A model generated the notes under the pieces. It saw only the letters and a program-made list of their open reading frames with translations. It had not been told where the DNA came from and searched no databases. 64,000 bases of DNA from a virus. How positions within the stretch are numbered: position 1 is the stretch's first letter; the number at the start of each line of letters is the position of its first letter. This document shows positions 6,723 to 58,484 of this stretch, one piece after another. The stretch lies in the IMG/VR virus record IMGVR_UViG_3300031992_000005, positions 96,001-160,000 of that record; one strand, 5' to 3'. A program made the translations under genes and the position numbers.

Positions 6723-6745
6723 ATCCCCTTAAACCCTTATTAATG
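6723..6745 (+). promoter_or_regulatory. Promoter-like motif, class A (unit 3)
   Basis: ATCCCCTTAAACCCTTATTAATG. Confidence 0.45.
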
Positions 6746-6757
6746 AATATGTCTTTA

Positions 6758-6828
6758 GGGAGCCTCGGCAATAGTAACCCCGGTCTTAGGTTATCACTAG
6801 CCACGTGGTAACGGGTTACTGGGCTCCC
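6758..6828 (+). ncRNA. Candidate structured small RNA (Y-shaped, ~71 nt), paralog of 7060-7125
   Basis: A 7-bp closing stem GGGAGCC/GGCTCCC is followed by T7. An internal long hairpin reads GGC-aa-TAG-TAACC[9-nt loop]GGTTA-tca-CTA-GCC. A short hairpin GTAA-CGGG-TTAC follows it. The unit lies between a promoter-like motif and a T-run and has no meaningful ORF. Confidence 0.5.
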
Positions 6829-11763: not shown

Positions 11764-14097
11764 TTATTGTTCAACTATAGTCCAACCATATTTTCCTAAA
11801 TAATAATTTCCCGTTCCCATCCAAGTGTCGTAGCCTGTAGAACCAGCTGGAACTGTTAAAGTACCATTGGACTTAATATAATAAAAGGTACTAGAACTTA
11901 TACTTGGGGCTGTAGTTGCAAGAGAAGTAATATTAACTAGATGAGTACAGTATTCGAATGCGTGGTTACCAATACTAGTCACTGAATTACCTATTGTAAC
12001 AGAAGTTAAAGAACTACAATAAACAAATGCATTAATTCCAATACTAGTAACTAAATCTGGAATTGTAATAGAGGTTAGAGAAGAACAACTTCGAAATGCA
12101 CCGGCACCAATACTAGTTACTGAATCTGGTATTATAACAGAAGTTAGAGAGGTACAACTTTCAAATGCAGCGCCACCAATACTAGTAACTGAATCTGGTA
12201 TTGTAACAGAAGTTAGAGAGGTACAAGTCCGAAATGTAAAATCACTAATACTAGTAACTGAACTAGGAATTGTAATAGATGTTAAAGAAGTACAATTATA
12301 AAATGCACTATTACCAATACTAGTAACTAAATTTGGAATTGTAATAGATGTTAAAGAAGTACAATTATAAAATGCACTACTACCAATCCTAGTAACTGAA
12401 TCTCCTATTATGATAGAAGTTAGAGAAGTACAGTTTTGAAACGCATAATTATCAATACTAGTAACTGAACTAGGAATTGTGATAGAAGTTAAAGAAGTAC
12501 AACCATTAAATGCACTATTACCAATACTAGTAACTGATTCTGGAATTGTGATAGAGGTTAAAGCAGAACAATCACTAAATGCACTACTTCCAATACTAGT
12601 AACTGAACTTGGAATTATAATAGAAGTTAAGGAAATACAACCAGCAAATGCATTATTATCAATACTAGTAACTGAATTTGGAATTATAGTGTTCTTACAA
12701 CCAGTAATTAATTTATTACTAGATTTTCCTATAATTGCGTTACAATCATTTCTAGAGTCATAATAAGAATTATTTGGATCAACTACTATTACTTCAATAC
12801 TACTGCATCCATAAAATGCATACTGACCAATATTAGTAACTGAACTAGGAATTGTGATAGAAGTTAAAGAAGTACAACCATTAAATGCACTATTACCAAT
12901 ACTAGTAACTGATTCTGGAATTGTGATAGAAGTTAGGGAAGTGCAGCTCTGAAATGCCTGACCACTAATACCAACAACCGAATCTGGAATTATTACATCT
13001 AAGTTTATACCTCTATAACGATAGACTATGTTATTTTTTATACATAACCCGTCAATCTCCAAATCTATTATAGTAGCTCCCCAATAACTGTACACTGTCT
13101 CATCAAGAGAGCTATTATTAACAAAATTATTAGATAAAAATAAGCAACCAGCAAATGCACCCTGACCAATACTAGTGACTGATTCTGGAATTATGATAGA
13201 AGTTAATCCAGTACATCCAGCAAATGCACCACTACCAAGACTAGTGATTGAATCTGGAATTGTAACGGAAGATAAAGAAAAACAATTATTAAATGCACCA
13301 TTACCCATACTAGTAATTGAATTACCTAGCGTAAGACTAGTTAGTTCATGACAGCCAGAAAATTCTTGTCCACCGATGGCAGGAACGGAATCTCCTATAA
13401 TTAATGTTTTTAATTTTCGACAAAAACTAGAACCATTAGAACTAAAAATACCTGATAATGGCGCTTGTGCATTATAATTAATATACTCTAAATTAATACA
13501 CCTAGCAAATGCACCACTAAGACTAGTAACTGATTCTGGTATTGTAATAGAAGTTAAAGAAGTACAACTACTAAATGCACCATAATTAACCTCAATTACT
13601 GATTCTGGTATTGTAATAGAAGTTAGAGAAGTACAATTCTGAAATGCACTATTATTAATTTTAGTAACACTACTTCCGATAACAAGATTAACCAGTTTAG
13701 GACAATTATTAAATGCACCATTAGTAATAGTTGTTACAGAATCTCCTATGATTGCTGTTACAAGTTCTGGAGAATTAGAAAAAGATGAATTACTAATACT
13801 AGTACACAATTTACCTATTTCAGCTTTAACACAATTACTATTATATTCACCCAGTCCGGATGCAGTTAACTCACCTTCGCCCTCTATTTCAATAACACTT
13901 CCATCTATTAAGGTTAATTTGCAGAATCCTTCATAAGGAGGTTCTTCGCTATCACCCCCCCCCCCTTGGCCGATTAGGTCTTCACTATTAAGTGATGGGA
14001 AGTAGTCACTCTTAGTCTTCTTTTTCACATTTGAATAAATATATTCACTTAGTGTATCCCCACCTAATTCATGAGAGAAACAATCATTTACATTCAT
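11764..14097 (-). CDS. BspA-type leucine-rich-repeat (LRR_5) protein, putative tail fibre/receptor-binding protein, class I N-terminal module
   Basis: About 25 repeats of the type SLTSITIPxSVTSIGxxAFxxCT. The N-terminal MNVNDCFSHELGGDTLSEYIYSNVKKKTKSDYFPSLNSEDLIGQGGGGDSEEP is shared with ORFs at 51953, 57309 and 59707. The C-terminal NGTLTVPAGSTGYDTWM..GWTIVEQ is shared with 51953. Confidence 0.8.
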   Translation of the reverse strand: MNVNDCFSHELGGDTLSEYIYSNVKKKTKSDYFPSLNSEDLIGQGGGGDSEEPPYEGFCKLTLIDGSVIEIEGEGELTASGLGEYNSNCVKAEIGKLCTSISNSSFSNSPELVTAIIGDSVTTITNGAFNNCPKLVNLVIGSSVTKINNSAFQNCTSLTSITIPESVIEVNYGAFSSCTSLTSITIPESVTSLSGAFARCINLEYINYNAQAPLSGIFSSNGSSFCRKLKTLIIGDSVPAIGGQEFSGCHELTSLTLGNSITSMGNGAFNNCFSLSSVTIPDSITSLGSGAFAGCTGLTSIIIPESVTSIGQGAFAGCLFLSNNFVNNSSLDETVYSYWGATIIDLEIDGLCIKNNIVYRYRGINLDVIIPDSVVGISGQAFQSCTSLTSITIPESVTSIGNSAFNGCTSLTSITIPSSVTNIGQYAFYGCSSIEVIVVDPNNSYYDSRNDCNAIIGKSSNKLITGCKNTIIPNSVTSIDNNAFAGCISLTSIIIPSSVTSIGSSAFSDCSALTSITIPESVTSIGNSAFNGCTSLTSITIPSSVTSIDNYAFQNCTSLTSIIIGDSVTRIGSSAFYNCTSLTSITIPNLVTSIGNSAFYNCTSLTSITIPSSVTSISDFTFRTCTSLTSVTIPDSVTSIGGAAFESCTSLTSVIIPDSVTSIGAGAFRSCSSLTSITIPDLVTSIGINAFVYCSSLTSVTIGNSVTSIGNHAFEYCTHLVNITSLATTAPSISSSTFYYIKSNGTLTVPAGSTGYDTWMGTGNYYLGKYGWTIVEQ

Positions 14098-24839: not shown

Positions 24840-25376
24840 TTAGAAGAAATCCACTATTATATAAGAAACAGAATTATATACAGGCCTTCTATACAACAAT
24901 TTATTCCAGATCCAAGGAATAGGTAATAAACAATACCAGAAGTGCTTTTTATCTATTTCTGGAAAATAGTTATGTGATGTAATATCAGACGTTGTAATAA
25001 AATTCCACTTAGGCTTTTTTATTGCAATAAAACCTACCTTACAACCTTCTGGTATCCAACCTGCAACTAGGTTAATAAAATCCTCAGGATAAGAATGCCA
25101 ATCTCCCTCATAAGTAAAGTTAAGAATACACTCATGACCCTTAAAGAGATTCATTGCTTCTTTAACTGTCATCTTACTTCTCCAAAGACCATGAGCAAAT
25201 ACCCACGTATCTCCCTTTTCTTTTACTCTAAGATCAAACCAGGTAATACCACTATTAAGCTGTTCTGACAAAGTTTTTCTTTGACACTTAGCAAAGATCT
25301 TACCTAGTCGACTTAAAAACCCAGAACTTTTCTCACCTGTCGCACTATTATGCGTTCCGATTTTCAATGAATTCAT
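24840..25376 (-). CDS. PI-PLC X-domain-like phosphodiesterase
   Basis: IGTHNSATG...QRKTLSEQLNSGITWFDLRV...FAHGLW fits the PLC-X pattern (GTHdS ... Q..i..QL..G.R.fDlRv ... HG). Confidence 0.5.
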   Translation of the reverse strand: MNSLKIGTHNSATGEKSSGFLSRLGKIFAKCQRKTLSEQLNSGITWFDLRVKEKGDTWVFAHGLWRSKMTVKEAMNLFKGHECILNFTYEGDWHSYPEDFINLVAGWIPEGCKVGFIAIKKPKWNFITTSDITSHNYFPEIDKKHFWYCLLPIPWIWNKLLYRRPVYNSVSYIIVDFF

Positions 25377-26727
25377 TATATTTAATTTTAATAAAATTTT
25401 CCAAAGCCTCAGGAGTATTTTCTAACACTCCATCTAAAACTGCCTCTTTCATAGCATTTTTTATTAGACCGACCATTCTTCCTTTTCCAATACCTAGGAT
25501 TTCCATTATCTCATTTCCTCCAAGGCATGGTTGAAAAAGCCGAACGAGATCTTTTTCTTGCAGGTCACTAATCATCTTTCTTAACTTATCATAGTGATCC
25601 TGTAACCTCATTCTTTTCGAGGGTCTTCTCGAAGTTACGTCAGATTCACAAAGGAGTAGTAGGTCTTCTAAATCTTCTCCAGCATCATAAATAAGCCTTC
25701 TAACAGCACTATCAGTAATAACTGAAGTACTAATCATAGCTGGCCTCATGTGCATATCAACCAGCTTTTGAACATAGTCTTTCTTACCTATCCTAAGCCT
25801 ATCAAGAACTCCTGGTATTAAGTTAGCCCCAATATGTTCATGATTATAGAAGGTCCACTCTCCTGTAGTAGGATCAAATCTCTGAGTAGAAGCTTTTCCA
25901 ATATCATGAAGAAGAGCCGCTATTCTAAGGTAAGGATTAGTTGTTTTCCCCACAATATTTCTCAAAACCTGTAAAGAATGCTTATAATTATCCTTATGTC
26001 CTTCAAGATCATTTCCTGCTTTAAGGGCAGTTAACTCAGGGAGAATCATTTCAAGGAGTTCAGCTGCATCTAGGAGTTCAATTCCTGCAACTGGATCGGG
26101 AGAAGCCATGATTTTTAGAAATTCCGTGCCAATCCTATCAGGGGTTAGAATTTTTATTCTATCCTTCAAAACCTTCATTGCATCAATTAGTCTCGAATCT
26201 ATGAGAAAACCCAATTTACACGTGAATCTAATAGCTCTGAACATGCGCAATGGATCATCCTTGAAAGTAATCATGGGATCCGTTGGTGTCATTATAATCT
26301 TACTTTTTAAATACTTTCGTCCATCAAACGGATCAACATACTCCCCAAAATGCTTCTCATTAAGACACATGGCAATAGTATTTATAGTAAAATCCCTTCT
26401 CATCTGATCATCATATAATGTACCTGGTACTACAGAAGGTTTTCTACTATCTGGGCTATAGGATTCTTTCCTAGCCCCAACAAATTCTACTTCTAGGTTA
26501 TTATACTTTACTGCGGCAGTTCCATAACGTTCATATCTGAGAACCTTACTCTGATGAATCTCCTTGGCAAATTCATCCGCCATCTTTACACCATCACCGA
26601 CGACAACAATATCAATGTCGTCATTTTCTATACCTAGAAGCTTATCTCTTACGTATCCACCTATAACATAACATGGTAGATTAATTTTGTCTGCTACTTT
26701 TCCAATTAATTTTAATAAGTCTTCCAT
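25348..26727 (-). CDS. cca: tRNA nucleotidyltransferase (CCA-adding enzyme) with HD domain
   Basis: YVIGGYVRDKLLG..DDIDIVVVGDG holds the Pol-beta nucleotidyltransferase GG/DxD. RRDFTINTIAM and DPLRMFRAIRF are head/neck motifs. LLHDIGK is the HD domain. Confidence 0.85.
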   Translation of the reverse strand: MEDLLKLIGKVADKINLPCYVIGGYVRDKLLGIENDDIDIVVVGDGVKMADEFAKEIHQSKVLRYERYGTAAVKYNNLEVEFVGARKESYSPDSRKPSVVPGTLYDDQMRRDFTINTIAMCLNEKHFGEYVDPFDGRKYLKSKIIMTPTDPMITFKDDPLRMFRAIRFTCKLGFLIDSRLIDAMKVLKDRIKILTPDRIGTEFLKIMASPDPVAGIELLDAAELLEMILPELTALKAGNDLEGHKDNYKHSLQVLRNIVGKTTNPYLRIAALLHDIGKASTQRFDPTTGEWTFYNHEHIGANLIPGVLDRLRIGKKDYVQKLVDMHMRPAMISTSVITDSAVRRLIYDAGEDLEDLLLLCESDVTSRRPSKRMRLQDHYDKLRKMISDLQEKDLVRLFQPCLGGNEIMEILGIGKGRMVGLIKNAMKEAVLDGVLENTPEALENFIKIKYNEFIENRNA

Positions 26728-26747: not shown

Positions 26748-26770
26748 CATATATAAGGAAAATAAAGGGA
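26748..26770 (-). promoter_or_regulatory. Promoter-like motif, class A variant (minus strand)
   Basis: The reverse complement reads TCCCTTTATTTTCCTTATATATG, 20 nt upstream of the cca ATG. Confidence 0.4.
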
Positions 26771-26941
26771 GGCATTTCGCTATTAGGAGAGTTGAGCCTA
26801 AGTATCTTCACCTCATACTCAGACCCAAACTCCTAATAATAGATAAGACTTTCCAGTCTCACCGACCAAGACCCCTCCATTAATGGGCCTTAAGCGAAAT
26901 CCTCATTAGTAAGGGGATAATGGGTAGTGAAGTGAGTTTTT

Positions 26942-27554: not shown

Positions 27555-27884
27555 ATGGAAAATAAGAATAACGTACTATATAACATACTAATCTTAATCA
27601 TAGTACTAATCTTGATCACAGTTTGTTCAAAATTTATTTTTTTTAAGTGGGAAAAAAGTAAGTTGAACGAAGAATGTGATCAGCTTTACGGAGATTATGA
27701 ACGCGAAGCAAATGCTATAAAAAATATAGTAGATACTATTGATAAGAAAAAGAAACAAGGCGCAACAAAGGATGACCTTGTAGACTTAAATAATGAGATA
27801 AATATACACGAACAAAACTTAAGTGAAATATTTAAAAAATATGAATCTACAATTGAAAAACGTAACAGTAGCTTTCGACTTTAA
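27555..27884 (+). CDS. Hypothetical membrane-anchored protein
   Basis: N-terminal TM segment LYNILILIIVLILITVCSKFIFF followed by a coiled-coil-like tail. Confidence 0.65.
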   Translation: MENKNNVLYNILILIIVLILITVCSKFIFFKWEKSKLNEECDQLYGDYEREANAIKNIVDTIDKKKKQGATKDDLVDLNNEINIHEQNLSEIFKKYESTIEKRNSSFRL

Positions 27885-34515: not shown

Positions 34516-34931
34516 AAAGACTTAATGAAGAAGGACAAGTAGTAAATCCAATTTTAGCTGAATTTGAAGAAGACTCCGATAAGGAAAGAGCAGATCAGAT
34601 TGTACTTGGTTGGAATAATGTAGAAGAAGCCGCTAAGGAAATTCTTAGTACAGTACTAAGCAGACTAGTATCTCCAGAGACAATCCCAGTATTTCTTTGG
34701 AAAAATACAGATTCAAACTCTGACCTACAACAGATCGTAGTTGTAGATAATAATACAGGATCAGATGATTTCGGATTAGGTATTATTCATGCAGGATATA
34801 CAATGGTTTTGCCACACATCCCTTTCTCCTACTTAGAAACAGATGTCATTACTGACATGAAGAAGTATAAGATTGGTAAGGATATTATTACGGCATATGA
34901 AAAAATTCTAAACAGATGGAGAAAAGAATGA
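34512..34931 (+). CDS. Hypothetical acidic protein
   Basis: The start is set at ATG 34512 (ATGA overlap with the previous stop). No motif recognised. Confidence 0.65.
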   Translation: MKRLNEEGQVVNPILAEFEEDSDKERADQIVLGWNNVEEAAKEILSTVLSRLVSPETIPVFLWKNTDSNSDLQQIVVVDNNTGSDDFGLGIIHAGYTMVLPHIPFSYLETDVITDMKKYKIGKDIITAYEKILNRWRKE

Positions 34932-35944
34932 GAATATTAGCCCTAGATCTTGGATATTCCGCTCTCAAATATACTTACATAGATGAGAACGGAAAAATGG
35001 TCAGTGATAAGATTATTTCTGCTGCAGCTAAACTACCTGAAGCTCCTATCGAAGTGGATAACGATGAACTGTTCAGACTAGGCACAGATTGGTACCTCCT
35101 AGGACCAAGTGCTCTTAGGACAGCTAGAAGTTATCTCCTTCCTTTGGAGACATTTGATGATATGCTGGCAGTTTATCCAGCATGGATTAGCTATCTCCTA
35201 AAGAAGCTTGAACATATTAAGTTTGATAAAGTAACAATCGGCCTATCATTTGCATTTGTAAATGAAGCCGATAGACTTCTTACTCACTTATACGATACCC
35301 TAATGATAGATCCTAGTACGAAATTCTTCGTATGCTTACCACAAGCATTATCTGCTAGACGTGGCTTAGTGAAATACGGAGTTAGTATTAAGGACAATGC
35401 AGCAAATGCAACAAAAGCCTCTGACTTTCAATCTTTTGTAATTATCGATGTAGGTCAGAATACAGTTGATGGTTGTAGTGTGATTAATGGAAAATCTGCT
35501 GCGGGTGCAAACTTAGGTATAGCTGATTCTGGTGTAATTGTTGTAGCTAGAAATATCGCAGATTATATCTATAAGAAATATGAATATAGAATCTCCATTA
35601 AAGAGGCACAGACAGTTGTAGATACAGGTATCTTAACTAGACGTGGCCGAGAAATTGACTTGACGGATATCGTTAAGCAATTGAAGAAGAGATACTTAAT
35701 TGATCTTCTTAACCTAATTGAAGAAAGGTATGGAGAATTCTTAGATGCTGCTGATAATCTTGTTATTATTGGCGGAGGAGCATACTTATTTAATCAAATG
35801 CTAGGGGATAAGGATTTCTGCGCAGAAGTAGAAAAGCATTTCCCAGTTAGCTTTATCATTACGCCAAAGGATAGTAGTGAATATTATAACAGTATATCTT
35901 ATTTATTAATTACGGAGGATCTTGTAAATTCGGGAAAGATTTAA
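34928..35944 (+). CDS. Actin-like ATPase (ParM/Alp family)
   Basis: Phosphate-1 is ILALDLGYSALKY. Phosphate-2 is FVIIDVGQNTVDG. The adenosine motif is LVIIGGGAYLF. The start is at the ATGA overlap (34928). Confidence 0.7.
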   Translation: MRILALDLGYSALKYTYIDENGKMVSDKIISAAAKLPEAPIEVDNDELFRLGTDWYLLGPSALRTARSYLLPLETFDDMLAVYPAWISYLLKKLEHIKFDKVTIGLSFAFVNEADRLLTHLYDTLMIDPSTKFFVCLPQALSARRGLVKYGVSIKDNAANATKASDFQSFVIIDVGQNTVDGCSVINGKSAAGANLGIADSGVIVVARNIADYIYKKYEYRISIKEAQTVVDTGILTRRGREIDLTDIVKQLKKRYLIDLLNLIEERYGEFLDAADNLVIIGGGAYLFNQMLGDKDFCAEVEKHFPVSFIITPKDSSEYYNSISYLLITEDLVNSGKI

Positions 35945-36023
35945 ATTTTAATTAAACACAGGAGAGCATGACATAGTTCTTGTTGATAGAGGACTACCTG
36001 TCATGCTTTTCATTTTCTAATAT

Positions 36024-36527
36024 ATGGAGACAAAGATTATTAAAGGACAAGCATGGATCGTTGGTGATAAGCTTGTTCAGGATCAAACAATGTTTACTAC
36101 AACTGGTGCAGTTAGTTCAAATATTGTTCCCCTGATAAATAATATATGGGATGACTTGTTGAGTGCTAATGGTACATTCAAGTGCAATTCCAAGAAAAAT
36201 TTCTTCTACTGGGAGTATAAAATGACAGATTCAACAGATGATACTCTTGAAGTAGATGTCATAATTGAATGTCCTAGACCTAAACCTGGCATTTTTACTG
36301 AACCTTACGACCCTGAAAATGGTACAAGTGATTGGGCTAAGTATTGGCTAGGAAGATTGAAGACTACTTATGATAATGCAAAGAAAGCTTACACAATTCA
36401 GCCTCAGGAAGTTATTTTTCCAGGCACAGAATATGTAGCTCCAACAGGGGAAATTGTTACAGTTGAAGAAAATACAGTAGTAAGAGATGATTTGGGTGAT
36501 ATTACAAATCTTCTTATATCATTTTAA
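36024..36527 (+). CDS. Hypothetical protein
   Basis: 167-aa ORF between two hairpin terminator-like elements. Confidence 0.7.
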   Translation: METKIIKGQAWIVGDKLVQDQTMFTTTGAVSSNIVPLINNIWDDLLSANGTFKCNSKKNFFYWEYKMTDSTDDTLEVDVIIECPRPKPGIFTEPYDPENGTSDWAKYWLGRLKTTYDNAKKAYTIQPQEVIFPGTEYVAPTGEIVTVEENTVVRDDLGDITNLLISF

Positions 36528-36600
36528 TTAAAAGGCCGGGGATTTAGTAATAACCTTGGCCTAAATTTTTCACAACAGAGCCACTCATTTCTTTATCTAT

Positions 36601-38106
36601 ATGATAAATTCACGGAATTATAAATTTAAGATCAATGTAAGCGCAGAAGCTTATACTAGTAAAATAGAAGCTAGAGCCTGTTTAACGCAAGAAAGTGCCA
36701 AAAAAATTGGAAGATCCAAGATGGCATTTAAAGAACAGTGGTTAACTGTAGATGAATTTCTAGAAAAAGCTACATCAGGTTATTGTTTCTGTAATATCTT
36801 TGAATTTGATCCTAATGTAATGTACAAGATATCAACAAGTCGCTCTAAAGTTTGGAAGATCTATCCAGTTTATAAAACCGGAGTTAACGCGGGTTGTATG
36901 AAATTAGGATTCAAAAGAGATGAGTTCTTTAAGGAAAGTTATGCGGTTTTTGTTGATATAGATTCCACCAGATTTCAGAGAGTTGATGCTTATATTAATA
37001 AGTTAACTTTTAAGCCAACTTGCGTATACATGTCTTATAGTGATGGTCTTGAGAAAAATGAAGTCACTAGTAGAAGATTTCACTTAATATATGTATTTGA
37101 TTCTCCCTTAGGAAAGCAAGATTTTCTTAAAGTATCTGAAATAATAACAAGGCAAATAGAAGAGGATACTGGGGAAATAGTTGAAGATTACTGTGGAACT
37201 AGACTCAGCCAATACATGAATGGTTGTTTTGGAAATCAAGAAGTGTACAAAACATACCTAGTTTATTCAATCTTAGATATCTTAGAGAAAGCAGAAAAAT
37301 TTTCTATTCCAATTATTGTCAAAGAAAAGCCTTCAATTAGTTTTAATGAATGGGTACTTATCGATTTTGATAATTTTGAAGAAGAGGAATTTAAATCAAA
37401 GCCTTGTTGGATAAACTGTTTGAGTACTTATACTTATCTTTGGAGAATAACAAAACCTGAATGGATCAATGGTGCTTATCAATTTGTTGATCCTGGTTAC
37501 TTTAGGCTTTTTTTCTATCCAGAAAAAGTTGAGGATGGAAATAAAAGAAGAAGAAAGCTATATGAAAGAATGTGTCTCAGGCGAATTATGAAGCCAGAGA
37601 TAACATCAGAGGAATTACAGTTTAATACAATAATGGATGTGCTTAAGTTTTTCGATAATAGCGATAGAGTAATAGATTCGGATTTTATTAAAAGAAATAT
37701 TACAAATTGTTTTAGTTATTCTGTTGAAGAGTTAATAGAACAATATTCTACAGAAATAGAATATCTTAGAAAAATATTCTATCCTAGGAGAGGAATTATT
37801 TATAGAACAAGATCTCATCATACCAGAGATATTACTTGGTGTATCCTAGATGAAATGTTTAATGATAATTTATCAGTTAGGGAAAATTTTGAAAATATTA
37901 ATAATGATGGATTTCCTATTAGTTTGAGATCTTTATATGATTACATAAATGATAGGGGTATTGTTATTAAAGGAAAAATAAGAGATGATGAATTACAAAA
38001 CCTAATTAATCCTAATTTATCGGGAAGAGAAAATTATAAGCTTTTAAGGGAGAAAGGATATAAAGTAGATATTCGAAGAATTAATGAATTACTAAAACGT
38101 AAATAA
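36601..38106 (+). CDS. Putative AEP-superfamily primase / replication initiator
   Basis: AVFVDIDSTRF is DxD-like and TSRRFHLIYVFDSPL is sxH-like, arranged as in archaeo-eukaryotic primase/prim-pol catalytic modules. The gene lies immediately upstream of the iteron array. The assignment is tentative. Confidence 0.4.
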   Translation: MINSRNYKFKINVSAEAYTSKIEARACLTQESAKKIGRSKMAFKEQWLTVDEFLEKATSGYCFCNIFEFDPNVMYKISTSRSKVWKIYPVYKTGVNAGCMKLGFKRDEFFKESYAVFVDIDSTRFQRVDAYINKLTFKPTCVYMSYSDGLEKNEVTSRRFHLIYVFDSPLGKQDFLKVSEIITRQIEEDTGEIVEDYCGTRLSQYMNGCFGNQEVYKTYLVYSILDILEKAEKFSIPIIVKEKPSISFNEWVLIDFDNFEEEEFKSKPCWINCLSTYTYLWRITKPEWINGAYQFVDPGYFRLFFYPEKVEDGNKRRRKLYERMCLRRIMKPEITSEELQFNTIMDVLKFFDNSDRVIDSDFIKRNITNCFSYSVEELIEQYSTEIEYLRKIFYPRRGIIYRTRSHHTRDITWCILDEMFNDNLSVRENFENINNDGFPISLRSLYDYINDRGIVIKGKIRDDELQNLINPNLSGRENYKLLREKGYKVDIRRINELLKRK

Positions 38107-38110
38107 TACA

Positions 38111-38213
38111 ATGCAACAAATGTTACATTGGAATGCAACAAATGTTACATCAGAGTTTAATTAAAAAAGAACTATGCAACAAATGTTACATTAGGATGCA
38201 ACAAATGTTACAT
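38111..38213 (+). repeat. Four direct copies of the 18-mer ATGCAACAAATGTTACAT, arranged as two pairs
   Basis: Copies lie at 38111-38128, 38133-38150, 38174-38191 and 38196-38213. Spacing within pairs is 22 nt and between pairs 63 nt. Confidence 0.95.
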
Positions 38214-38223
38214 TAATGGTTTA

Positions 38224-38356
38224 ATGTTACAAATTCAAAAATATGTTACAAATTCAAAAATATGTTACAAATTCAAAAATATGTTACAAATTCAAAAATA
38301 TGTTACAAATTCAAAAATATGTTACAAATTCAAAAATATGAAATTTTGTAACAAAT
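38224..38356 (+). repeat. Six perfect tandem copies of the 19-mer ATGTTACAAATTCAAAAAT plus an inverted core copy
   Basis: Copies start at 38224, 38243, 38262, 38281, 38300 and 38319. The core TGTTACA is shared with the 18-mer repeats. TTGTAACAAAT at 38346-38356 carries the inverted core. Confidence 0.95.
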
Positions 38357-38381
38357 AAAAAAATCGCTAAATAAAAGATAG

Positions 38382-38527
38382 TATAATATATATTATTAAA
38401 TATAAATATAATAAATAATATAATATATATAATTATTATTAAATATAAATATAATAATTAATATAATATAAATAATATAAATATAATAAATATAAATATA
38501 TATAATATAATATAATATATATATATA
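38382..38527. other. 146-nt tract of pure A/T; candidate DNA-unwinding element
   Basis: There is no G or C between 38382 and 38527. The tract is built from ATAATA/TATAAA-type short repeats and lies directly after the iteron-like arrays. Confidence 0.6.
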
Positions 38528-38638
38528 CAACACCAACCAACCTTTAATCTTAAATTGCAAAAACGCATCACCTTTATAAAACACTGAAATAGAAGGACTT
38601 AAAGCCTTACTTATGTTTATAAATTTAAAATAAGGGTT

Positions 38639-39487
38639 ATGATATTTACAGTATTAGAACAGATGTACAAATGTGGATGTGAAAAGGGCGTAGCAGACCT
38701 AATATCTGAAGGAATACTAGACAAGATCAATGATTTAGCTGAATGGGATTTATGTAGATTCCCTTCTAAAGAAATTGAAAGACGTCAGATTACATTTCCA
38801 ATCTATCTTGATGAGACTGGAACAGTATCTGCCGAATCTAAAGTAGAAACAAAACCCATCTATGAAGAGAATAGGAAGTTCTTAGGAGAGACACCAAAAC
38901 TTGCTCCCGGGAATTGTATCTTAGTAGATGGGCAGGTTATTGCAATAGATAGGCCGGATAGATTAGTCCTAGTTGTGTCCAAGACTGGTGGAAGAGCATT
39001 GACTAGAATTTACGATGAGATCATAACTCCTGAGTATGAGTTGTACCATAGTAAGAATACATCTCTTAAGTTTACTTGGGATTCACCTGGAGTAGAAATA
39101 CCAAAGGAATTTGATGGGGAATATAGAGTTCCTTATTCTAAGTATAAATATTGGAAGGAGTTTTTTGTTAGGGGAAGAGATCTCACTCCAGACCCTAATG
39201 GAAACTTGGCAATCTTAGTTAATATAGATTATATATTTCCGGTAGAACTATACTTTACTCCTTGGACGGTTAAGTTTAAGAAAACTGATTTCGAAGAAGG
39301 GGAAGAGTCTTTGGTTGAATATCTTGTAGATTCTGTTCTTCGGGATTTTTGTGTAGGATATACAAGACTTGTGAACCCATTAGGAGAATTTCCAACTCCA
39401 GCTGAACAAGTACAGAGATTATTGGAGTTTGACAAGCAGGTTCAGATTAATCAATTCAAGCTAATGAATGGAGCAAAAAATTTATAA
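38639..39487 (+). CDS. Hypothetical protein
   Basis: 282-aa ORF. No motif recognised. Confidence 0.7.
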   Translation: MIFTVLEQMYKCGCEKGVADLISEGILDKINDLAEWDLCRFPSKEIERRQITFPIYLDETGTVSAESKVETKPIYEENRKFLGETPKLAPGNCILVDGQVIAIDRPDRLVLVVSKTGGRALTRIYDEIITPEYELYHSKNTSLKFTWDSPGVEIPKEFDGEYRVPYSKYKYWKEFFVRGRDLTPDPNGNLAILVNIDYIFPVELYFTPWTVKFKKTDFEEGEESLVEYLVDSVLRDFCVGYTRLVNPLGEFPTPAEQVQRLLEFDKQVQINQFKLMNGAKNL

Positions 39488-39496
39488 AAATAAAAA

Positions 39497-39513
39497 GTAG
39501 GCCAAGTGCCTAC
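39497..39513. terminator. Bidirectional intrinsic terminator between convergent genes
   Basis: The GTAGGC-caagt-GCCTAC hairpin is flanked by A5 upstream and T8 downstream. Confidence 0.7.
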
Positions 39514-39519
39514 CTTTTT

Positions 39520-40221
39520 TTAACTTAGTTTGTCTGTGATATTATCAATGAGCCCGAATTTTCCATATCGACCTGGAAGACATTCTTCTGCCTTAAGATA
39601 ATGATCTCGACTTGCATCATTCTTAACTTCTACTAGATCTTTTCCAGAAGCATCGGCTAAGATTTGCATAAGTTCTTCGTTGAGGGTTTTTGTCTCTCTT
39701 GTCATGATTTCTAGGTCGGGATATGTAATTCTATCGCTACCAGTGGAAACTGAGTGAATCATAATCCTACTGTGTTCTAGGGCAGATCTATTTCCTATAG
39801 TTCCGCCGACCATTAGGATACTTCCCATACTAGCAGCTAGACCTAAACAAGTAGTACTCAAAGTACAATCTTGTTTTACAAGTTGCATTGTATCATACAG
39901 GGCTAAGCCATGATAAACGGAACCTCCTCCAGTACTAAGATACATCCTAATACCTTCGTTTTTATCTATGGCGTGAAGATATAATAATTGACTGAGGGCT
40001 ATATTTGCCGAGTCTGAGGTTACTTCATCGCCGAAGAAAATAATTCTGTTACTCATGAGCTCTGAGAATACATCAACTTGTACCATTCTCTCTTGGCTCT
40101 CTTTTGTAATGTAAGGGGTAATAATACCATTCTGAAACTTAGCATAATCATCAACTACGCTTGTGCTAACTGTTTTCTTACTCTTACAAAACTTTCTGAA
40201 ATCTTTGAATAAATTAAACAT
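39520..40221 (-). CDS. clpP: ATP-dependent Clp protease proteolytic subunit (ClpP)
   Basis: RIIFFGDEVTSDSANIALSQLLYL, YLSTGGGSVYHGLALYDTMQ, GLAASMGSILMVGG (catalytic Ser) and SRIMIHSV (catalytic His) are present. Confidence 0.85.
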   Translation of the reverse strand: MFNLFKDFRKFCKSKKTVSTSVVDDYAKFQNGIITPYITKESQERMVQVDVFSELMSNRIIFFGDEVTSDSANIALSQLLYLHAIDKNEGIRMYLSTGGGSVYHGLALYDTMQLVKQDCTLSTTCLGLAASMGSILMVGGTIGNRSALEHSRIMIHSVSTGSDRITYPDLEIMTRETKTLNEELMQILADASGKDLVEVKNDASRDHYLKAEECLPGRYGKFGLIDNITDKLS

Positions 40222-40309
40222 AAGTTAATAGTTTTTGGAACAATACATTTGTAAGGATTTGAAGCGTAGTTTTTGCTGATCTCTGCCCATAGAAACCTTA
40301 TCTTTGATT

Positions 40310-41029
40310 ATGAAAACTTTATATATTTGTGGTGACATTCATGGAGAATTAGTACCATTAGTGAATGATGCCGCCAAGGAGATAAAAGATGCCTCAATTC
40401 TTATCGTTGGAGATTTTGGGGCTGGTTTTGGCGGAACAATAGAGAGTTATAAGAAAATAGAAAAGAACTTGGAAGAACGGAATATTGAACTCTATGCTAT
40501 TAGAGGAAATCACGATGACCCTTCTTGGTTTATTGATGGAAGTCATGATCTTCCAAGGTTAAAGTTTTTGAAAGACCACACGTTGATTGACATATGTGGT
40601 TATTCAATTTATCCGGTGGGTGGGGCTACTTCGGTTGACATTGACTTGCCAGATTTCTCTGGAAAAACAAGAAGACAGAGAAACAATGACCTAATAAGAT
40701 ATAGATCTCATAAGAGAGTCTGGTGGCCGGGGGAAGTTATTGACACAAGTGTAGAAACTTTTCCTATTAAGGTGGATATTATTGTTTCTCATGATGCCCC
40801 TCTTGGTTTTGAACCTATTCCAACTAGGACAGAATATATGTCTTTAGAAACATGGAATAGTGTACTGGAGGGAAGAAAGTATCTAGACAAAGTCTTGAAG
40901 GAGATTAATTGTAAGAGATGGTTTTATGGACATCATCATAAATCTTATTCAGGACATGTTGGAGATTTGTTATACAGATGTTTAGGAATACAAGAATTAT
41001 ATCAAGTACCAGAAAAGGAAAAAGAATGA
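40310..41029 (+). CDS. Calcineurin-like metallophosphoesterase
   Basis: YICGDIHGE, IVGDFG, IRGNHD, VSHDAP and YGHHH are present. The start is set at the first ATG (40310). Confidence 0.8.
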   Translation: MKTLYICGDIHGELVPLVNDAAKEIKDASILIVGDFGAGFGGTIESYKKIEKNLEERNIELYAIRGNHDDPSWFIDGSHDLPRLKFLKDHTLIDICGYSIYPVGGATSVDIDLPDFSGKTRRQRNNDLIRYRSHKRVWWPGEVIDTSVETFPIKVDIIVSHDAPLGFEPIPTRTEYMSLETWNSVLEGRKYLDKVLKEINCKRWFYGHHHKSYSGHVGDLLYRCLGIQELYQVPEKEKE

Positions 41030-41835
41030 AAAGGAAAGTTTTATACCTAGTTATCGGTCTTATACTAGGATTAATTGCAGGTAATCAAGTAATTGGTTGT
41101 TCTGGAGAAGAAAACAGTGATCTTCCTTCTTTCAGAGAATGGAAATATGCTATTGAAGTTCCAGACTCGAAGACAGATAAAATGGTAATTAGCCATACTG
41201 GATTTACTGTCTCTTATAATCCCGATACCAATTGTCCCTCTTGGGTAGCTTGGAACTTAACAAAGGAAGAAGTAGAGCTTAAAAATGTACCGAGGAGTGA
41301 TGAGTTTTTACCAGACCCAGATCTTCTCCCAGAATACAGAGTAGTCACTTCAGATTATACTGGGAGTGGATATGATCGAGGTCATATGTGTCCTGCAGCA
41401 GATATGAGATGGAGTAAGGACGCAATGAGGGACTGCTTTTATATGTCAAATATCTGTCCACAAATTCCTGTCTTGAATAGACAATGGTGGGAACATGCTG
41501 AAGAAGCTTGTAGAAGATGGGCAGTATCTGAAGGCAGTGTTTATATTTGTTGTGGTCCTATTTATGATCCAGACCTAGTTCCAGTTTATATAAGAAAGAG
41601 TCACTCCATTAGAGTACCAGATGGATTCTTTAAAGTTGTCTTATCTTTAAGACCTGGACATGAAAAAGCAATAGGATTTATTTATAGTAATACCGATTCG
41701 CGTCAGCCTATGGAAGATGTAGCCATGACGGTTGATAATGTAGAGGAAGCTGTTGGCATAGACTTCTTCTATTATCTACCTGATAGCTTAGAATCTAGAT
41801 TAGAAGCTGAGTATAACCTTAATTCCTGGAACTGA
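41026..41835 (+). CDS. Secreted lipoprotein, DNA/RNA non-specific endonuclease (NucA/EndoG family)
   Basis: A signal peptide plus lipobox reads MKRKVLYLVIGLILGLIAGNQVIGC. The active-site block is GSGYDRGHMCPAADM, followed by NICPQ. The start is at an ATGA overlap. Confidence 0.8.
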   Translation: MKRKVLYLVIGLILGLIAGNQVIGCSGEENSDLPSFREWKYAIEVPDSKTDKMVISHTGFTVSYNPDTNCPSWVAWNLTKEEVELKNVPRSDEFLPDPDLLPEYRVVTSDYTGSGYDRGHMCPAADMRWSKDAMRDCFYMSNICPQIPVLNRQWWEHAEEACRRWAVSEGSVYICCGPIYDPDLVPVYIRKSHSIRVPDGFFKVVLSLRPGHEKAIGFIYSNTDSRQPMEDVAMTVDNVEEAVGIDFFYYLPDSLESRLEAEYNLNSWN

Positions 41836-42044
41836 TGGAGAGGTATTACAAGCATTATAAGGGGAATATCTATAAGTTTATTCTTGAATGTATAAATTCG
41901 GAGACCTTAGAGCCTATGATTGTCTATCAAGCAACATATGGAGATCATCAGGTCTGGGTCCGGCCAAAAAGGATGTTTGATGAGATGGTTACTCTTCCTA
42001 ATGGTGAGACAGTCAAGAGATTTACTGAAATTCCCCCAGATTAA
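41835..42044 (+). CDS. DUF1653-like small protein
   Basis: YKHYKGNIYKFILECINSETLEPMIVYQATYGDHQVWVRPKRMF matches the Y.HYKG..Y......hsET.e..VvY.....WvRP..mF pattern as I recall it. Confidence 0.55.
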   Translation: MERYYKHYKGNIYKFILECINSETLEPMIVYQATYGDHQVWVRPKRMFDEMVTLPNGETVKRFTEIPPD

Positions 42045-42074
42045 TTTATTTATTTTTAAAACCCTTAAGTTATT

Positions 42075-42239
42075 ATGAGCATGGAATCTATGGCCAAGAA
42101 AATACTTGGTAATGAAGGAGCTATCAAAGATCTCATTAAGAAGATGGAAAAGTTAGGTAAAAAAATAAGTCTCATGGCTAGTGAGATAACTCATCTAAAG
42201 AGAGAGAACAAAGACTTAAGGCGAAGACTATCGGATTAG
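42075..42239 (+). CDS. Small coiled-coil protein (54 aa)
   Basis: MSMESMAKKILGNEGAIKDLIKKMEKLGKKISLMASEITHLKRENKDLRRRLSD. It falls below the ORF-track threshold and is followed by a GGGCTG..CAGCCC hairpin. Confidence 0.45.
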   Translation: MSMESMAKKILGNEGAIKDLIKKMEKLGKKISLMASEITHLKRENKDLRRRLSD

Positions 42240-42293
42240 AAAAATACGGGCTGGGGATGTCATGCTGGATACCTTCAGCCCCTTATTCATGTT

Positions 42294-42983
42294 ATGAAGC
42301 AGAATAAATCTATTTTACTGATTAAGAGTAATCGTTCTTTTCCTGGTTTCTTATCAACGGAAGAAGTGATTATATATAATCTTGTGTTTTCTGAACCGTC
42401 GTTAAGTATATATAACCTACAAAATATACACTTAATAGGGGACGGTGACCGTATATTAAGAGATACAATAAATAAATTAATTGGAGGTAGGGGATGGGTA
42501 CCGGTATATTCTGAATCTTCATTGAAGAATTTTGATGAAGAGAAATTTGTATCATTTCTTGAAAAATATCGTCCCGAATTTACAACAAAGTTGGGACGGA
42601 TTAAGACGAAGCTGGAGATTAGTTTCGCAACGAGATCTAAAGTTAAACTAGTCAGAGTAGAAAGATTGCTTAACATAATTAAGATTCCAGGGAGAGTAGC
42701 AGTTCATACTATAAATAAGAAGTTATATAGGAGCTTAAAGGCCACAGGGCCAGAAGTAGATCCTAATAGCTATTTATTAAGTTTCCCTGATGATGAAAGT
42801 TTAGCAAAATTTTCTAAGAGATTTGTGGATTACTGTTGGAAAGAAGTATTACCAGATTTATCTTGGTACTTAGGTTACATCAGAAACAAGGATAGTTGTT
42901 TTGGTTTACCACATGATCCTTATGTTCGATTGGAATTGCTTGGAGCAGTAATTACAGCTTGGTATGAAAAGAATCCCCTTTAA
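42294..42983 (+). CDS. Hypothetical protein
   Basis: 229-aa ORF on the locally dominant strand. I prefer it over the antisense ORF 42287-42676. Confidence 0.65.
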   Translation: MKQNKSILLIKSNRSFPGFLSTEEVIIYNLVFSEPSLSIYNLQNIHLIGDGDRILRDTINKLIGGRGWVPVYSESSLKNFDEEKFVSFLEKYRPEFTTKLGRIKTKLEISFATRSKVKLVRVERLLNIIKIPGRVAVHTINKKLYRSLKATGPEVDPNSYLLSFPDDESLAKFSKRFVDYCWKEVLPDLSWYLGYIRNKDSCFGLPHDPYVRLELLGAVITAWYEKNPL

Positions 42984-51952: not shown

Positions 51953-53467
51953 ATGAATGTAAATGATAGTTTTTCCCATAAACTTGGGGGAGATACACTG
52001 AATGAGTATATTTATTCAAATGTGAAGAAGAAGGTGAAGGAGGATAAGTTTCCTGCTAAGAATAGTAGAGACCTAATTGGAGATGGTGTAGTAGATGAGG
52101 ATATGGGCGAAGCTATAGAGCCAATTGATCCTATTAGGTTTGTTGCAAAGGTTAACGTAACTGACACATCAAGTCCTACTAAACTGTTTAATAATCCAAG
52201 TAATCTGGCGGCAATCGAGATAGATGGTGTTGTGTATGAAGGTAATGATATATCTAGTAATCTTAATCATACCTTTGATAGTGTTGGAATACATACAGTG
52301 AAGTATACACTTAAAGATGGAATGACTACTATTAATGATGGCAGTTGTTTTCAATTTATAACTGCCTTAGTTAGTATAACAATACCAGAAAGTATTACTA
52401 GTATTGGTGGTGGTGCATTTAGTAGTTGTTATTCTTTATCTTCCGTTACAATTCCTGGTTCAGTTACTAGTATTGGTAGTGGTGCATTTGGTAGTTGTAC
52501 TTCCTTAACCTCTATTACAATCCCTGGTTCAGTTACTGAGATTGGTGGTAGTGCATTTAGTGGTTGTACTAATTTAACAAATGTAGTAGTAAGTGATTAT
52601 GAAGGTGGTAATACAACTATTACTAATGCTGCATTTTCAGGTTGTACTGGATTAGTTTCCCTGATTTTGGGAAATTCCGTGACAACTATTACTAATTCAG
52701 CATTTGCTAGTTGCGCTGGACTGGTTTCCTTGACATTGGAAAATTCCGTGACAACTATTAGTAATGGTGCATTTAATGGTTGTATTAGTTTAGCTAAAGT
52801 TAATATTCCCAATTCTGTTATTAATCTTAGTAATAGTCCATTTGCAGGTTGTATTCGACTGACTAGATTAACAATACCTAGTTCCGTTGTTCATTTAAAT
52901 AATATTGGAGGACATTTTAAGTTTAATGATATTAAATTTAGAACAATTAATCCGGATGCTGATTTTACCCGTGATGCTACAAATAAAGTAATCCTTGATA
53001 AGACGGGTACTATATTATTATGGGGATTCGAAGATACAGTAGCAATTCCGAATACAGTAACTAGTATTGGTCAGAGAGCATTTAGTGATTGTACTTCTCT
53101 AACTTCCATTACAATACCAGATTCAGTAACTAGTATTGGTGAGTATGCATTTCAGAAGTGTACCTCCCTAACTTCTATTACAATTCCTAGTTCAGTTACT
53201 AGTATTGGTGGTAGTGCATTTTATAATTGTACTTCCCTAACCTCTATTACTATTCCAGGTTCAGTTACTAGTATTGGTAGTCAAGCATTTTATAGTTGTA
53301 CTTCTCTAATTTCTATAACATCATTAGCGACAACTGCTCCGACGATTAGCTCTTATACTTTTTGGGAAATCAAATCTAATGGTACTCTAACAGTCCCTGC
53401 CGGTTCTACAGGTTACGATGCCTGGATGGAACAATTACCTAGTGGTTGGACTCTAGTTGAGCAATAA
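51953..53467 (+). CDS. BspA-type LRR protein, putative tail fibre, class I N-terminal module
   Basis: The N-terminus is MNVNDSFSHKLGGDTLNEYIYSNVKKKVKEDKFPAKNSRDLIG. LRR_5 repeats are present. The C-terminal ATTAPTISSYTFWEIKSNGTLTVPAGSTGYDAWM..GWTLVEQ is homologous to the C-terminus of 11764-14097. Confidence 0.8.
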   Translation: MNVNDSFSHKLGGDTLNEYIYSNVKKKVKEDKFPAKNSRDLIGDGVVDEDMGEAIEPIDPIRFVAKVNVTDTSSPTKLFNNPSNLAAIEIDGVVYEGNDISSNLNHTFDSVGIHTVKYTLKDGMTTINDGSCFQFITALVSITIPESITSIGGGAFSSCYSLSSVTIPGSVTSIGSGAFGSCTSLTSITIPGSVTEIGGSAFSGCTNLTNVVVSDYEGGNTTITNAAFSGCTGLVSLILGNSVTTITNSAFASCAGLVSLTLENSVTTISNGAFNGCISLAKVNIPNSVINLSNSPFAGCIRLTRLTIPSSVVHLNNIGGHFKFNDIKFRTINPDADFTRDATNKVILDKTGTILLWGFEDTVAIPNTVTSIGQRAFSDCTSLTSITIPDSVTSIGEYAFQKCTSLTSITIPSSVTSIGGSAFYNCTSLTSITIPGSVTSIGSQAFYSCTSLISITSLATTAPTISSYTFWEIKSNGTLTVPAGSTGYDAWMEQLPSGWTLVEQ

Positions 53468-57308: not shown

Positions 57309-58484
57309 ATGAATGTAAATGATTGTTTCTCCCATGAATTAGGTGGAGATACTTTAAGTGAATATATCTATTCAAATGTGAAGAAAAGAACAAAAGGAGA
57401 TTACTTCCCAGCTAAAAATAGCGAAGACCTGATCGGAGAAGGGGGAGGGGGAGATAGTGAAGAACCCATAGAAACTGTACCTAATAATATGATTAGGTAT
57501 TATGCCCCTGAAATATTACCAGAAACAACAAGTAATAAAAATGTAGGAATTCACATTAATGCCTTCAATACTACTGTTATCTCACATACATTTGAAGATG
57601 GGGTTGGTATAGTAGAATTTGAAGGAGATGTAACAGATATTGGAGATAAGGCGTTTTATCAATGTGGAAATATAACAAAATTAGTCTTACCAAAAAGTAT
57701 AACTAGTATTGGGAATAGTTCTATAAGTGGCTGTCAAAAATTAATAAGTATTAATATTCCAAACGGTGTTACTAGTATTGGTGATGGTGCGTTTCATTAT
57801 TGTTGGAGACTGACTAAGATCATAATTCCAACTAGTGTTACTAGTATTGGTAGTAGTGCATTTAGTCAAGATTTTTTTTATGTAGGTAATTTCATTAATA
57901 ACAGTTCTCTTGATGCAGAAGCTAATAACTATTGGAAAGCTACTTTAGCGGATATTGAAATGAACGACGGTATATTAATGAAAAATAATGAAATTGTATT
58001 GTTTAGAGGTAATAATACGGATATTATAATACCTAGTGGTGTAACTAGTATTGGTGAGTATGCATTTAGTGGTGATTCGTATGGTGGTGGTGATCTTGTA
58101 AGCATAACAATACCAAACAGTGTTACAAATATAGCTGCTTCTGCATTTAATACTTGCAAAAGTTTGACTAGTATAACAATTCCTAATTCTGTAACTAGTA
58201 TTGGTTATAATGCATTCGGTGGTTGTAGAAACATGACAGCAGTAGTTATTGGAACTAGTGTAACTGATATGGGTGAAATGGTATTTTGTGATTGTAATAA
58301 TTTATCTAGTGTAACAGTATTAGCTACAACTCCACCCACACTTGGGTCATATCATGGTCAATACTCGAATTTTTCTAATACAAACGATTGCCCTATCTAT
58401 GTTCCAGCTGCCAGTGTAGATGCGTATAAATCTGCCCAAGGCTGGAGTACCTATGCTAGTAGAATTCAAGCAATTTCAGAATAA
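57309..58484 (+). CDS. BspA-type LRR protein, putative tail fibre, class I N-terminal module
   Basis: MNVNDCFSHELGGDTLSEYIYSNVKKRTKGDYFPAKNSEDLIGEGGGGDSEEP is nearly identical to the N-terminus of 11764-14097. LRR_5 repeats are present. Confidence 0.8.
   Translation: MNVNDCFSHELGGDTLSEYIYSNVKKRTKGDYFPAKNSEDLIGEGGGGDSEEPIETVPNNMIRYYAPEILPETTSNKNVGIHINAFNTTVISHTFEDGVGIVEFEGDVTDIGDKAFYQCGNITKLVLPKSITSIGNSSISGCQKLISINIPNGVTSIGDGAFHYCWRLTKIIIPTSVTSIGSSAFSQDFFYVGNFINNSSLDAEANNYWKATLADIEMNDGILMKNNEIVLFRGNNTDIIIPSGVTSIGEYAFSGDSYGGGDLVSITIPNSVTNIAASAFNTCKSLTSITIPNSVTSIGYNAFGGCRNMTAVVIGTSVTDMGEMVFCDCNNLSSVTVLATTPPTLGSYHGQYSNFSNTNDCPIYVPAASVDAYKSAQGWSTYASRIQAISE

Follow-up and report, generated by a model that had tools for sequence, protein, structure and literature searches.

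A candidate iteron-type replication origin beside a gene for a primase-like protein in a phage of probable Bacteroidales hosts

Two classes of direct repeats and an A/T-only tract lie directly downstream of a gene encoding a 501-amino-acid protein

We analyzed 64 kb of viral DNA (positions 96,001 to 160,000 of the IMG/VR virus record IMGVR_UViG_3300031992_000005; hereafter "the window," whose numbering is used throughout unless a contig is named), in which a putative initiator gene for a protein of 501 amino acids (aa) (36601-38106, plus strand) is directly followed by an array of short repeats and by a stretch free of G and C. The stop codon TAA of this open reading frame (ORF) occupies positions 38104-38106, and the first repeat begins 4 nt later. 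Four identical 18-mers of sequence ATGCAACAAATGTTACAT (class-1 iterons, plus strand) are found at 38111-38128, 38133-38150, 38174-38191, and 38196-38213, with start-to-start distances of 22, 41, and 22 nt, so that the members of a pair are 22 bp apart and the two pairs 63 bp apart. They are followed at 38224-38337 by six perfect tandem 19-mers of sequence ATGTTACAAATTCAAAAAT (class-2 iterons, plus strand; 6.2 copies, 100% matches, and a score of 234 in Tandem Repeats Finder) and by one inverted copy of the core, TTTGTAACAAAT, on the minus strand (38345-38356, with its TGTTACA core at 38347-38353). Together with the inverted core copy, the last 19-mer forms an inverted repeat of 12-13 bp at the end of the array, 25 nt short of the A/T tract; counted from the end of the inverted core at 38353, the distance to the tract is 28 nt.

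These repeats are particular to the locus. No further copy of the class-1 18-mer with 3 or fewer mismatches exists in the 64-kb window (4 found versus 0.13 expected), and ATGTTACAAAT has no second exact copy there. The window contains 25 occurrences of the heptamer TGTTACA versus 9.7 expected, and 11 of the 25 fall within the 233 nt between 38121 and 38353, 10 of them on the plus strand and 1 inverted. Because the class-1 18-mer is a semi-palindrome (ATGCAAC-AAAT-GTTACAT), each copy holds two cores in inverted orientation, the second of which (TGCAACA) is degenerate and centered at a distance of 9 bp from TGTTACA. The core, TGTnACA, is palindromic in its own right. The class-1 spacings of 22 and 63 bp are close to 2 and 6 helical turns, so that the sites would all face the same side of the helix. 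The core of the fourth class-1 copy continues the 19-bp register of the class-2 array, and seven cores are therefore phased at 19 bp.

The A/T-only tract, a candidate DNA unwinding element, spans 146 nt (38382-38527) and is built of about 3 copies of a unit of about 43 nt. The second-longest A/T-only run in the window measures 29 nt, and the least stable 100-mer of the window, as judged by nearest-neighbor free energy, sits in the tract (z = 7). Iterons are confined to one side of the tract; on its other side, positions 38528-38638 (plus strand) contain the leader and probable promoter region of a downstream gene for a 282-aa protein (p282). An earlier reading of the same DNA (the original prediction) had listed ten direct TGTTACA cores in two iteron classes with one inverted copy, four 18-mers paired at 22-nt spacing with the pairs 63 nt apart, six perfect 19-bp tandem repeats, and a 146-nt stretch of pure A/T, and the repeat finders recovered every one of these elements in place, the A/T stretch being unique in the window. 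The locus has the three or more regularly spaced direct repeats of about 17-22 bp, built on a conserved core, that are typical of iterons and, as judged by sequence and stability, an adjoining A+T-rich candidate unwinding element.

Several other kinds of element were sought at the locus. An RNA gene was dropped as a candidate after Rfam searches (E ≤ 1 for the region and gathering thresholds for the window) returned nothing and no tRNA or tmRNA was found. A scan for sigma-70 promoters gave fewer sites than in shuffled sequences, and the sole reported "terminator" turned out to be a palindromic class-1 site without a T run. Hairpins of the single-strand initiation (ssi) type, as in RepB'-like priming, were also rejected, their single-stranded DNA folds being weak (−5 to −8 kcal/mol, best z = −2.75).

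The 501-aa protein is predicted to combine a primase-polymerase fold with a helical C terminus

The 501-aa protein has no sequence match in Pfam, PHROG, NCBIfam, or PDB, whether searched alone or as a profile of 37 sequences, and a tblastn search against phages and PLSDB plasmids also returned none. Its homologues number at least 293, all of them unannotated. In its predicted structure, an AlphaFold2 model built on 37 homologues (mean predicted local distance difference test score [pLDDT], 86.6), an N-terminal domain is followed by a helical middle part and by two C-terminal three-helix units that resemble helix-turn-helix (HTH) domains. The top match of the model in a Foldseek search against PDB is the archaeo-eukaryotic primase (AEP) domain of the cyanophage S-2L PrimPol (6zp9; E = 1.6e−4, probability 1.0, TM score 0.48 on the target), and the second is the polymerase domain of LigD (E = 0.05). 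Against BFVD, 44 matches have E values of 1e−3 or lower, many of them annotated as primase, PriCT-1/2, VirE, or primase-helicase. These matches support an AEP primase-polymerase fold in the N-terminal part of the modeled protein, and the "AEP-like" label that the original prediction had given to the ORF is borne out at the level of the fold. Residues D119 and D121 (the DxD of the motif VFVDIDxT) and D196 are invariant across the 37 homologues, a pattern compatible with a putative AEP metal-binding triad.

The two three-helix units of the model cover residues 400-501. In homologues, sub-threshold matches to HTH_7 and HTH_17 fall at the equivalent of residues ~425-455, and one BFVD match to the C-terminal part is annotated as an arginine repressor (E = 3e−5). 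Modeled alone, the C-terminal 102 residues have a pLDDT of 83.5 and show a weak, partial likeness (E ≥ 1) to the winged HTH domains of Fur, Zur, and ArgR. From the helix pattern, the sub-threshold Pfam HTH matches, and the arginine-repressor match, we infer that the C terminus may bind DNA, and sequence-specific DNA binding by the 501-aa protein is plausible on the strength of the model.

The distribution of the protein also points to the identity of its carrier. The exact 501-aa sequence is recorded on ten contigs, one of them of 107.7 kb and two in the 0.2-1 Mb class, and the latter two imply a very large phage. Because relatives of the protein come almost entirely from Bacteroidales (Prevotellaceae, Muribaculaceae, and others), this order is the likely host range. 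The source of the window is thus likely a very large phage (>200 kb) of gut or rumen Bacteroidales. A megablast search of the 36-40 kb region against GenBank phages gave no match.

Core sequence and phase of the repeats are retained across strain variants

Copy numbers of both repeat classes vary among close relatives of the window: class-1 copies number 4, 3, or 2, and class-2 copies range from 2 to 6. Contig L059, which encodes an identical protein, has four 18-mers and only two 19-mers. In L005 (96% aa identity), two perfect 18-mers are accompanied by a degenerate third copy that retains the AAATGTTACAT half, and the contig terminates inside the 19-mers. L006 (aa identity again 96%) contains two 18-mers along with four 19-bp units, ATGTTACAAATTTAACAGA, ATGTTACAAAATTGATAGA, ATGTTACAAATTCAAAAAT, and ATGTTACAAATTCGAAAAT. 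In these four units, positions 1-10 (the ATGTTACAAA core) are invariant and 6 of the 9 spacer positions vary, while the 19-bp phase is exact; by chance, all 6 variable positions would fall in the spacer with a probability of C(9,6)/C(19,6) = 0.003 (hypergeometric). Because the core is fixed while the spacers vary, the pattern fits a protein-binding core held at fixed spacing, as far as can be judged from sequence comparison. The inverted core of L006 is changed to TTTGCACAAAT. In the window, the perfect six-copy array arose by recent expansion of a single unit.

Variation of this kind could also be due to the array being a functionless, slippage-prone tandem repeat that adjoins low-complexity A/T DNA in an intergenic recombination hot spot. 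A repeat of this sort would account for 19-mers that are perfect and variable in number, for assemblies that break within the array, and for the absence of the block from a sister contig (described below). It does not readily explain why two repeat classes have one core in common, why L006 keeps core and phase while its spacers diverge, or why the class-1 copies are identical though they are not in tandem. Repeats, albeit different ones, also recur beside the stop codon of the AEP/HTH gene across the family. We consider a functionless array distinctly unlikely.

Exact matches to the class-1 18-mer in databases (3 in IMG/VR and 110 in the Joint Genome Institute [JGI] metagenomes) were considered as further arrays and dismissed as chance: nearly all are single copies, the one contig with two copies has them far apart, and the IMG/VR matches that we read lie inside unrelated coding sequence. 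Additional copies of the array did not emerge from these matches.

The gene and the repeat block have been exchanged together in a near-identical genome

Contig L001 is a 28-kb sister of the window with the same phage background, of which 21.5 kb was covered by the repeat search. Its proteins are nearly identical to those of the window on either side of the locus (99.1% aa identity for the ParM-like protein, 98.8% for p167, 98.7% for p154, and 94.7% for the downstream p282), and the flanking DNA is 93-99% identical on both sides. The AEP gene itself and its L001 allele have only 70-79% DNA identity and 73% aa identity. The divergent cassette extends over ~36800-38570; within it the repeat region is unalignable, and the alignment resumes at ~38573. 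Synonymous divergence (dS) between the two AEP alleles is 1.12, versus 0.07-0.24 for six neighboring genes. The ratio of nonsynonymous to synonymous divergence (dN/dS) of the AEP gene is 0.15, and dN peaks (0.24) in the C-terminal 100 residues. Given the high dS and the low dN/dS, the L001 gene is an old functional allele acquired by recombination rather than a decaying copy. L001 lacks the whole iteron block of ~270 nt, and after its stop codon only an A/T-only tract is found, at the same position; neither an enrichment of TGTTACA nor a further tandem array is seen in the 21.5 kb. The initiator gene and the repeat block were exchanged together as one cassette.

The gene for p282 (38639-39487), a protein without a family match, is more diverged from its L001 counterpart (dN = 0.029) than the other flanking genes (dN of ~0.005). 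It may lie partly within the recombined segment or be functionally linked to the cassette.

The exchange bears on the possibility, raised as an alternative in the original prediction, that the array is a parC-like centromere at which an adaptor protein couples the repeats to filaments of the ParM/actin-like protein for DNA segregation or positioning. A gene for an actin-fold ATPase is indeed located 2.2 kb upstream (34916-35944; Pfam MreB-like_C, 8.4e−13; a weak ParM_N match; phrog_691 "partition protein," 3.8e−17). Short tandem repeats make up the arrays of type II centromeres (10 × 11 bp in R1 and 4 × 20 bp in pSK41), and the locus resembles the ParMRC systems of R1 (parC) and pSK41 in having tandem short repeats near an actin-like ATPase gene. 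However, the repeat block is absent from L001 even though the ParM-like protein, p167, and p154 remain ~99% identical, and the repeats co-vary with the AEP gene and not with the ParM-like gene, which favors an origin or initiator-site reading over parC. Unlike in ParMRC, the array is not upstream of parM at its promoter but 2.2 kb downstream, past two genes, and no ParR-like protein was recognized in Pfam, PHROG, and NCBIfam searches. Homologues of the AEP gene moreover have adjoining repeats in chromosomal islands without a ParM-like gene. The centromere alternative is weakened by these observations, and we regard it as quite improbable.

The ParM-like gene, whose start is overlapped by the ORF upstream of it, belongs to one co-directional block, with a dUTPase gene upstream and the AEP gene and its repeats downstream. 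Its product may have a role in DNA positioning or in plasmid-like maintenance; neither an adaptor nor a centromere for it was identified.

The comparison with L001 is also relevant to the notion that the array is a locus of control or incompatibility, where the 501-aa protein would bind the repeats for titration, handcuffing, or autoregulation of neighboring genes, while initiation would be confined to the A/T tract or would use a different origin in the >200-kb genome. Retention of the A/T tract but not of the iterons in L001 is in line with this notion, as are the 2-6 copies of the 19-mer across strains with an identical protein, which would befit a dosage-type element, and the resemblance of the semi-palindromic class-1 sites to dimer operators. 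Yet the array is situated 3′ of the gene and not at the gene's promoter, the A/T tract intervenes between the array and the next gene, and seven phased cores with an A/T tract 25 nt away are the usual layout of iterons and an unwinding element. Since the co-variation of gene and repeats serves a control locus and an origin equally, it does not discriminate between them. We deem a control locus unlikely, though not far-fetched.

Repeats recur beside homologous genes in islands and other phages

To the extent that homologous loci have been sampled, repeats next to genes of this family are not limited to the window. In the 500 nt past the stop codon of a homologue, at least three direct 12-mers (≤1 mismatch) are present at 14 of 41 loci, versus 16 of 909 background windows (Fisher test, P = 6e−13), a comparison in which the loci are mutually related and the background, taken from the same loci, is mostly coding. 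The repeats mostly begin 85-130 nt past the stop codon and are spaced at 54-66 or 31 bp. Their motifs follow the clades of the protein, being common within a clade and different between clades (TATTATAGYAGA, GAAAATTTACAA, and ATGGCAAAAACT).

Chromosomal homologues belong to small Bacteroidales islands, which carry DUF3871, DUF3853, and a serine recombinase and are without a ParM-like gene. Island repeats come as three (sometimes four) direct copies at the 54-66- or 31-bp spacing (L047, 7745-7924; L055, 7776-7933; L021, 7805-7971; L056, 7856-8043), with 31-bp units in L031, L029, and L058, and sit in a local low-GC stretch. The island gene and its repeats look like modules of a replication gene and its origin (rep-ori), and the islands may be satellites or mobilizable elements. 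Genes for ClpP and a metallophosphatase, which are found both near the phage gene and near one island homologue, were set aside as a coincidence (the proteins are only ~30% identical).

Two further phages with a homologue also have repeats near it. In the small tailed-phage contig L066, three TATTTATCTSAG sites are followed by three inverted ones at 56-59-bp spacing (3261-3722), in a 500-nt gap upstream of the homologue; genes for terminase, protease, and capsid proteins are nearby. Contig L064 ends in a 10-bp tandem repeat, AGAAAGAAAA / AGAAACAAAA (6725-6774), ~150 nt past the gene, and is a further case of repeats beside a gene of the 501-aa family breaking an assembly.

The locus is probably a replication origin served by the 501-aa protein

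We hypothesize that positions 38107-38527 are a cis-acting replication origin of the phage, or one of its origins, and that it is served by the 501-aa protein encoded upstream. We judge this reasonably probable. That iterons and an unwinding element beside an initiator gene form an origin was also the original prediction, and it gains support from the AEP fold, from the uniqueness of the repeats in the window, from the co-variation of repeats and gene, and from the repeats across the family. In the mechanism that we propose, the C-terminal HTH-like units of the protein would recognize the TGTTACA core. The protein would fill the four 18-mers, with two cores each and on one helical face, and polymerize along the seven cores phased at 19 bp. 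The resulting nucleoprotein array would distort the DNA and melt the adjoining 146-nt A/T-only tract, whereupon the N-terminal AEP domain could lay the first primer on the opened strand before a helicase and a polymerase of the phage or host take over. With no terminator past the gene, read-through transcription into the repeats may aid the opening.

Several observations weigh against an origin at this position, or against parts of the proposed mechanism. In the protein, H161 would correspond to the usual AEP motif-II histidine, and most relatives have an arginine there. The isolated C-terminal domain has no significant fold match in PDB. Neither the model nor family searches revealed a helicase domain or a P-loop in the protein, and further factors would therefore be needed. 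In the DNA, the DnaA box TTATCCACA has no match with 1 or fewer mismatches from 35061 to 42824, and in the window as a whole its matches are about as frequent as expected by chance; host DnaA boxes are common in iteron plasmids of proteobacteria but not universal. The check by GC skew that the original prediction had suggested found no sign change at 38 kb within the window. The skew switches only at ~12-13 kb and ~26.9 kb, both at changes of gene strand (minus at 11.8-26.7 kb and plus from 27.1 kb on); because it tracks gene strand, it is uninformative on an origin here. Among relatives, no comparable downstream repeats are seen in three other homologue-bearing viral contigs of low GC content. 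The variation of perfect 19-mers between 2 and 6 copies in near-identical strains also fits a slippage-prone variable-number tandem repeat. Finally, L001 has no recognizable iterons besides its A/T tract, and the repeats may therefore be accessory, with a part in copy control or incompatibility, and not the site of initiation.

The proposed origin can be compared with several known systems. Iterons measure 19 bp in F ori2 and P1 oriR and 22 bp in R6K and pPS10, and the lambda origin has four semi-palindromic sites of ~19 bp and an AT-rich region. Like the iteron-containing theta origins of plasmids and phages (reviewed in PMC4980987), the locus has direct repeats in the 18-22-bp range with a conserved core and fixed spacing, beside a candidate AT-rich unwinding region and a putative initiator gene, and one site exists in related palindromic and direct forms, as it does in mini-F and pPS10. 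Unlike in these origins, the putative initiator has an AEP fold and is neither a winged-helix Rep, RepE, or Pi protein nor lambda O, DnaA boxes are missing, the A/T tract, at 146 nt, stands out for its length and purity, and the carrier is a >200-kb phage.

Closer in arrangement are the Staphylococcus aureus pathogenicity islands (SaPIs), in which iterons are located directly 3′ of rep together with an AT-rich region (PMC9371898). The locus resembles these pri-rep origins of SaPIs and other phage-inducible chromosomal islands (PICIs) in having iterons directly 3′ of the replication gene, an AT-rich region, a putative initiator linked to a primase, and a presumably allele-specific pairing of origin and Rep; as with SaPIs and PICIs, homologues of the 501-aa protein are also found in chromosomal islands. 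SaPI iterons, however, are 5-6 nt long and found to either side of the AT region, and the Rep that binds them is a self-loading helicase with a winged helix at its C terminus, whereas the repeats of the window are 18-19 bp long and lie on one side only, and the 501-aa protein has no helicase domain.

With respect to the protein, precedents are found among plasmid AEPs (PMC4538821): ColE2 Rep, which both binds its own origin and primes at it, and the primase RepB', whose C-terminal domain is helical. The 501-aa protein, as modeled, would likewise pair an AEP catalytic fold with a helical C-terminal part for DNA recognition, as in ColE2 Rep and RepB' of RSF1010, without detectable sequence similarity to either. 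Their origins differ from the locus: that of ColE2 is a single short site without iterons, and RepB' uses ssi hairpins and a separate initiator, RepC. In Inc18 plasmids, transcription through rep into the origin aids initiation. The Inc18 plasmids pAMbeta1 and pIP501 (initiators RepE and RepR) also have the origin just downstream of the rep gene (PMC4981023), as is proposed for the window, and their initiator binds double-stranded DNA beside the start site; unlike the locus, their minimal origin is ~52 bp with one inverted repeat and no iteron arrays. Semi-palindromic direct repeats are used by RepA_N initiators (PMC7145576).

The layout of the locus is classical and will not surprise a specialist. 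What is new is a putative AEP-fold initiator family without a curated name that is widespread in mobile elements of Bacteroidales, the setting in a >200-kb phage, and clear evidence that initiator and repeats were swapped as a cassette between near-identical genomes. To our knowledge, replication origins of very large gut and rumen phages of Bacteroidales are essentially unmapped. If confirmed, the locus would provide a defined origin-initiator pair for a huge phage and a first means of approaching the function of an AEP/HTH family that is widespread among the mobile elements of Bacteroidales. Because two alleles share one genome background, it would also constitute a natural experiment on initiator-iteron specificity, and the compact rep-ori module could seed replicating vectors for Prevotella and Bacteroidales.

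We further conjecture, as a tentative idea with a small chance of being right, that the cassette is an exchangeable determinant of specificity with at least two ancient alleles in one huge-phage species, that the many Bacteroidales islands with the same module are satellites or hitchers of phages, and that the swapping reflects an arms race over origin specificity. Swapping would then be a sign of escape from hijacking or of incompatibility of co-infecting genomes, and the replication of islands with DUF3871, DUF3853, and a resolvase would be tied to initiators of this kind. Since a ParM-like gene is close by, persistence of the phage as an episome, in the manner of a plasmid, is a further possibility within this conjecture.

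Other features of the window

The window has a G+C content of ~34% and encodes GroES/GroEL, a ligase-like protein, dUTPase, ClpP, a metallophosphatase, an NS-type nuclease, SbcC-like and exonuclease proteins, topoisomerase II, a CCA-adding enzyme, HNH endonucleases, and BspA-type leucine-rich repeat (LRR) proteins. This gene content is pertinent to whether the array could be a recognition site for packaging (pac) or lie near a genome terminus. Some pac sites do hold repeated short motifs and bent A/T-rich DNA, but no terminase or structural genes were recognized near the array, whose neighborhood is one of DNA and nucleotide metabolism, and the array is linked to the AEP gene. A packaging site or terminus is, in our view, extremely improbable.

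A GC-richer island on the minus strand (26760-26910) separates the gene of the CCA-adding enzyme (25348-26727, minus strand) from the block of plus-strand genes. Its minus strand folds as a three-stem junction (−65 kcal/mol; z = −4.15 versus shuffles), whereas the plus strand has z = −0.9; searches for Rfam, tRNA, and tmRNA matches in the island returned none. The island is a candidate for a structured RNA or for a 5′ leader of the tRNA nucleotidyltransferase gene. Past the divergent region, within or close to the first plus-strand ORFs, positions 27586-27622 contain 2.1 copies of an 18-bp unit (TACTAATCTTAATCACAG), a repeat kept in both genomes, its counterpart in L001 being at 982-1018.

Large proteins made of 69-bp (23-aa) BspA-type leucine-rich repeats, detected as arrays by Tandem Repeats Finder, are encoded at 11764-14097 (minus strand), 51953-53467, and 57309-58484; the product of the last matches Pfam LRR_5 at 7e−50. 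Bacteroidales and gut-associated phages typically encode BspA-type LRR proteins, and those of the window may be host-recognition proteins.

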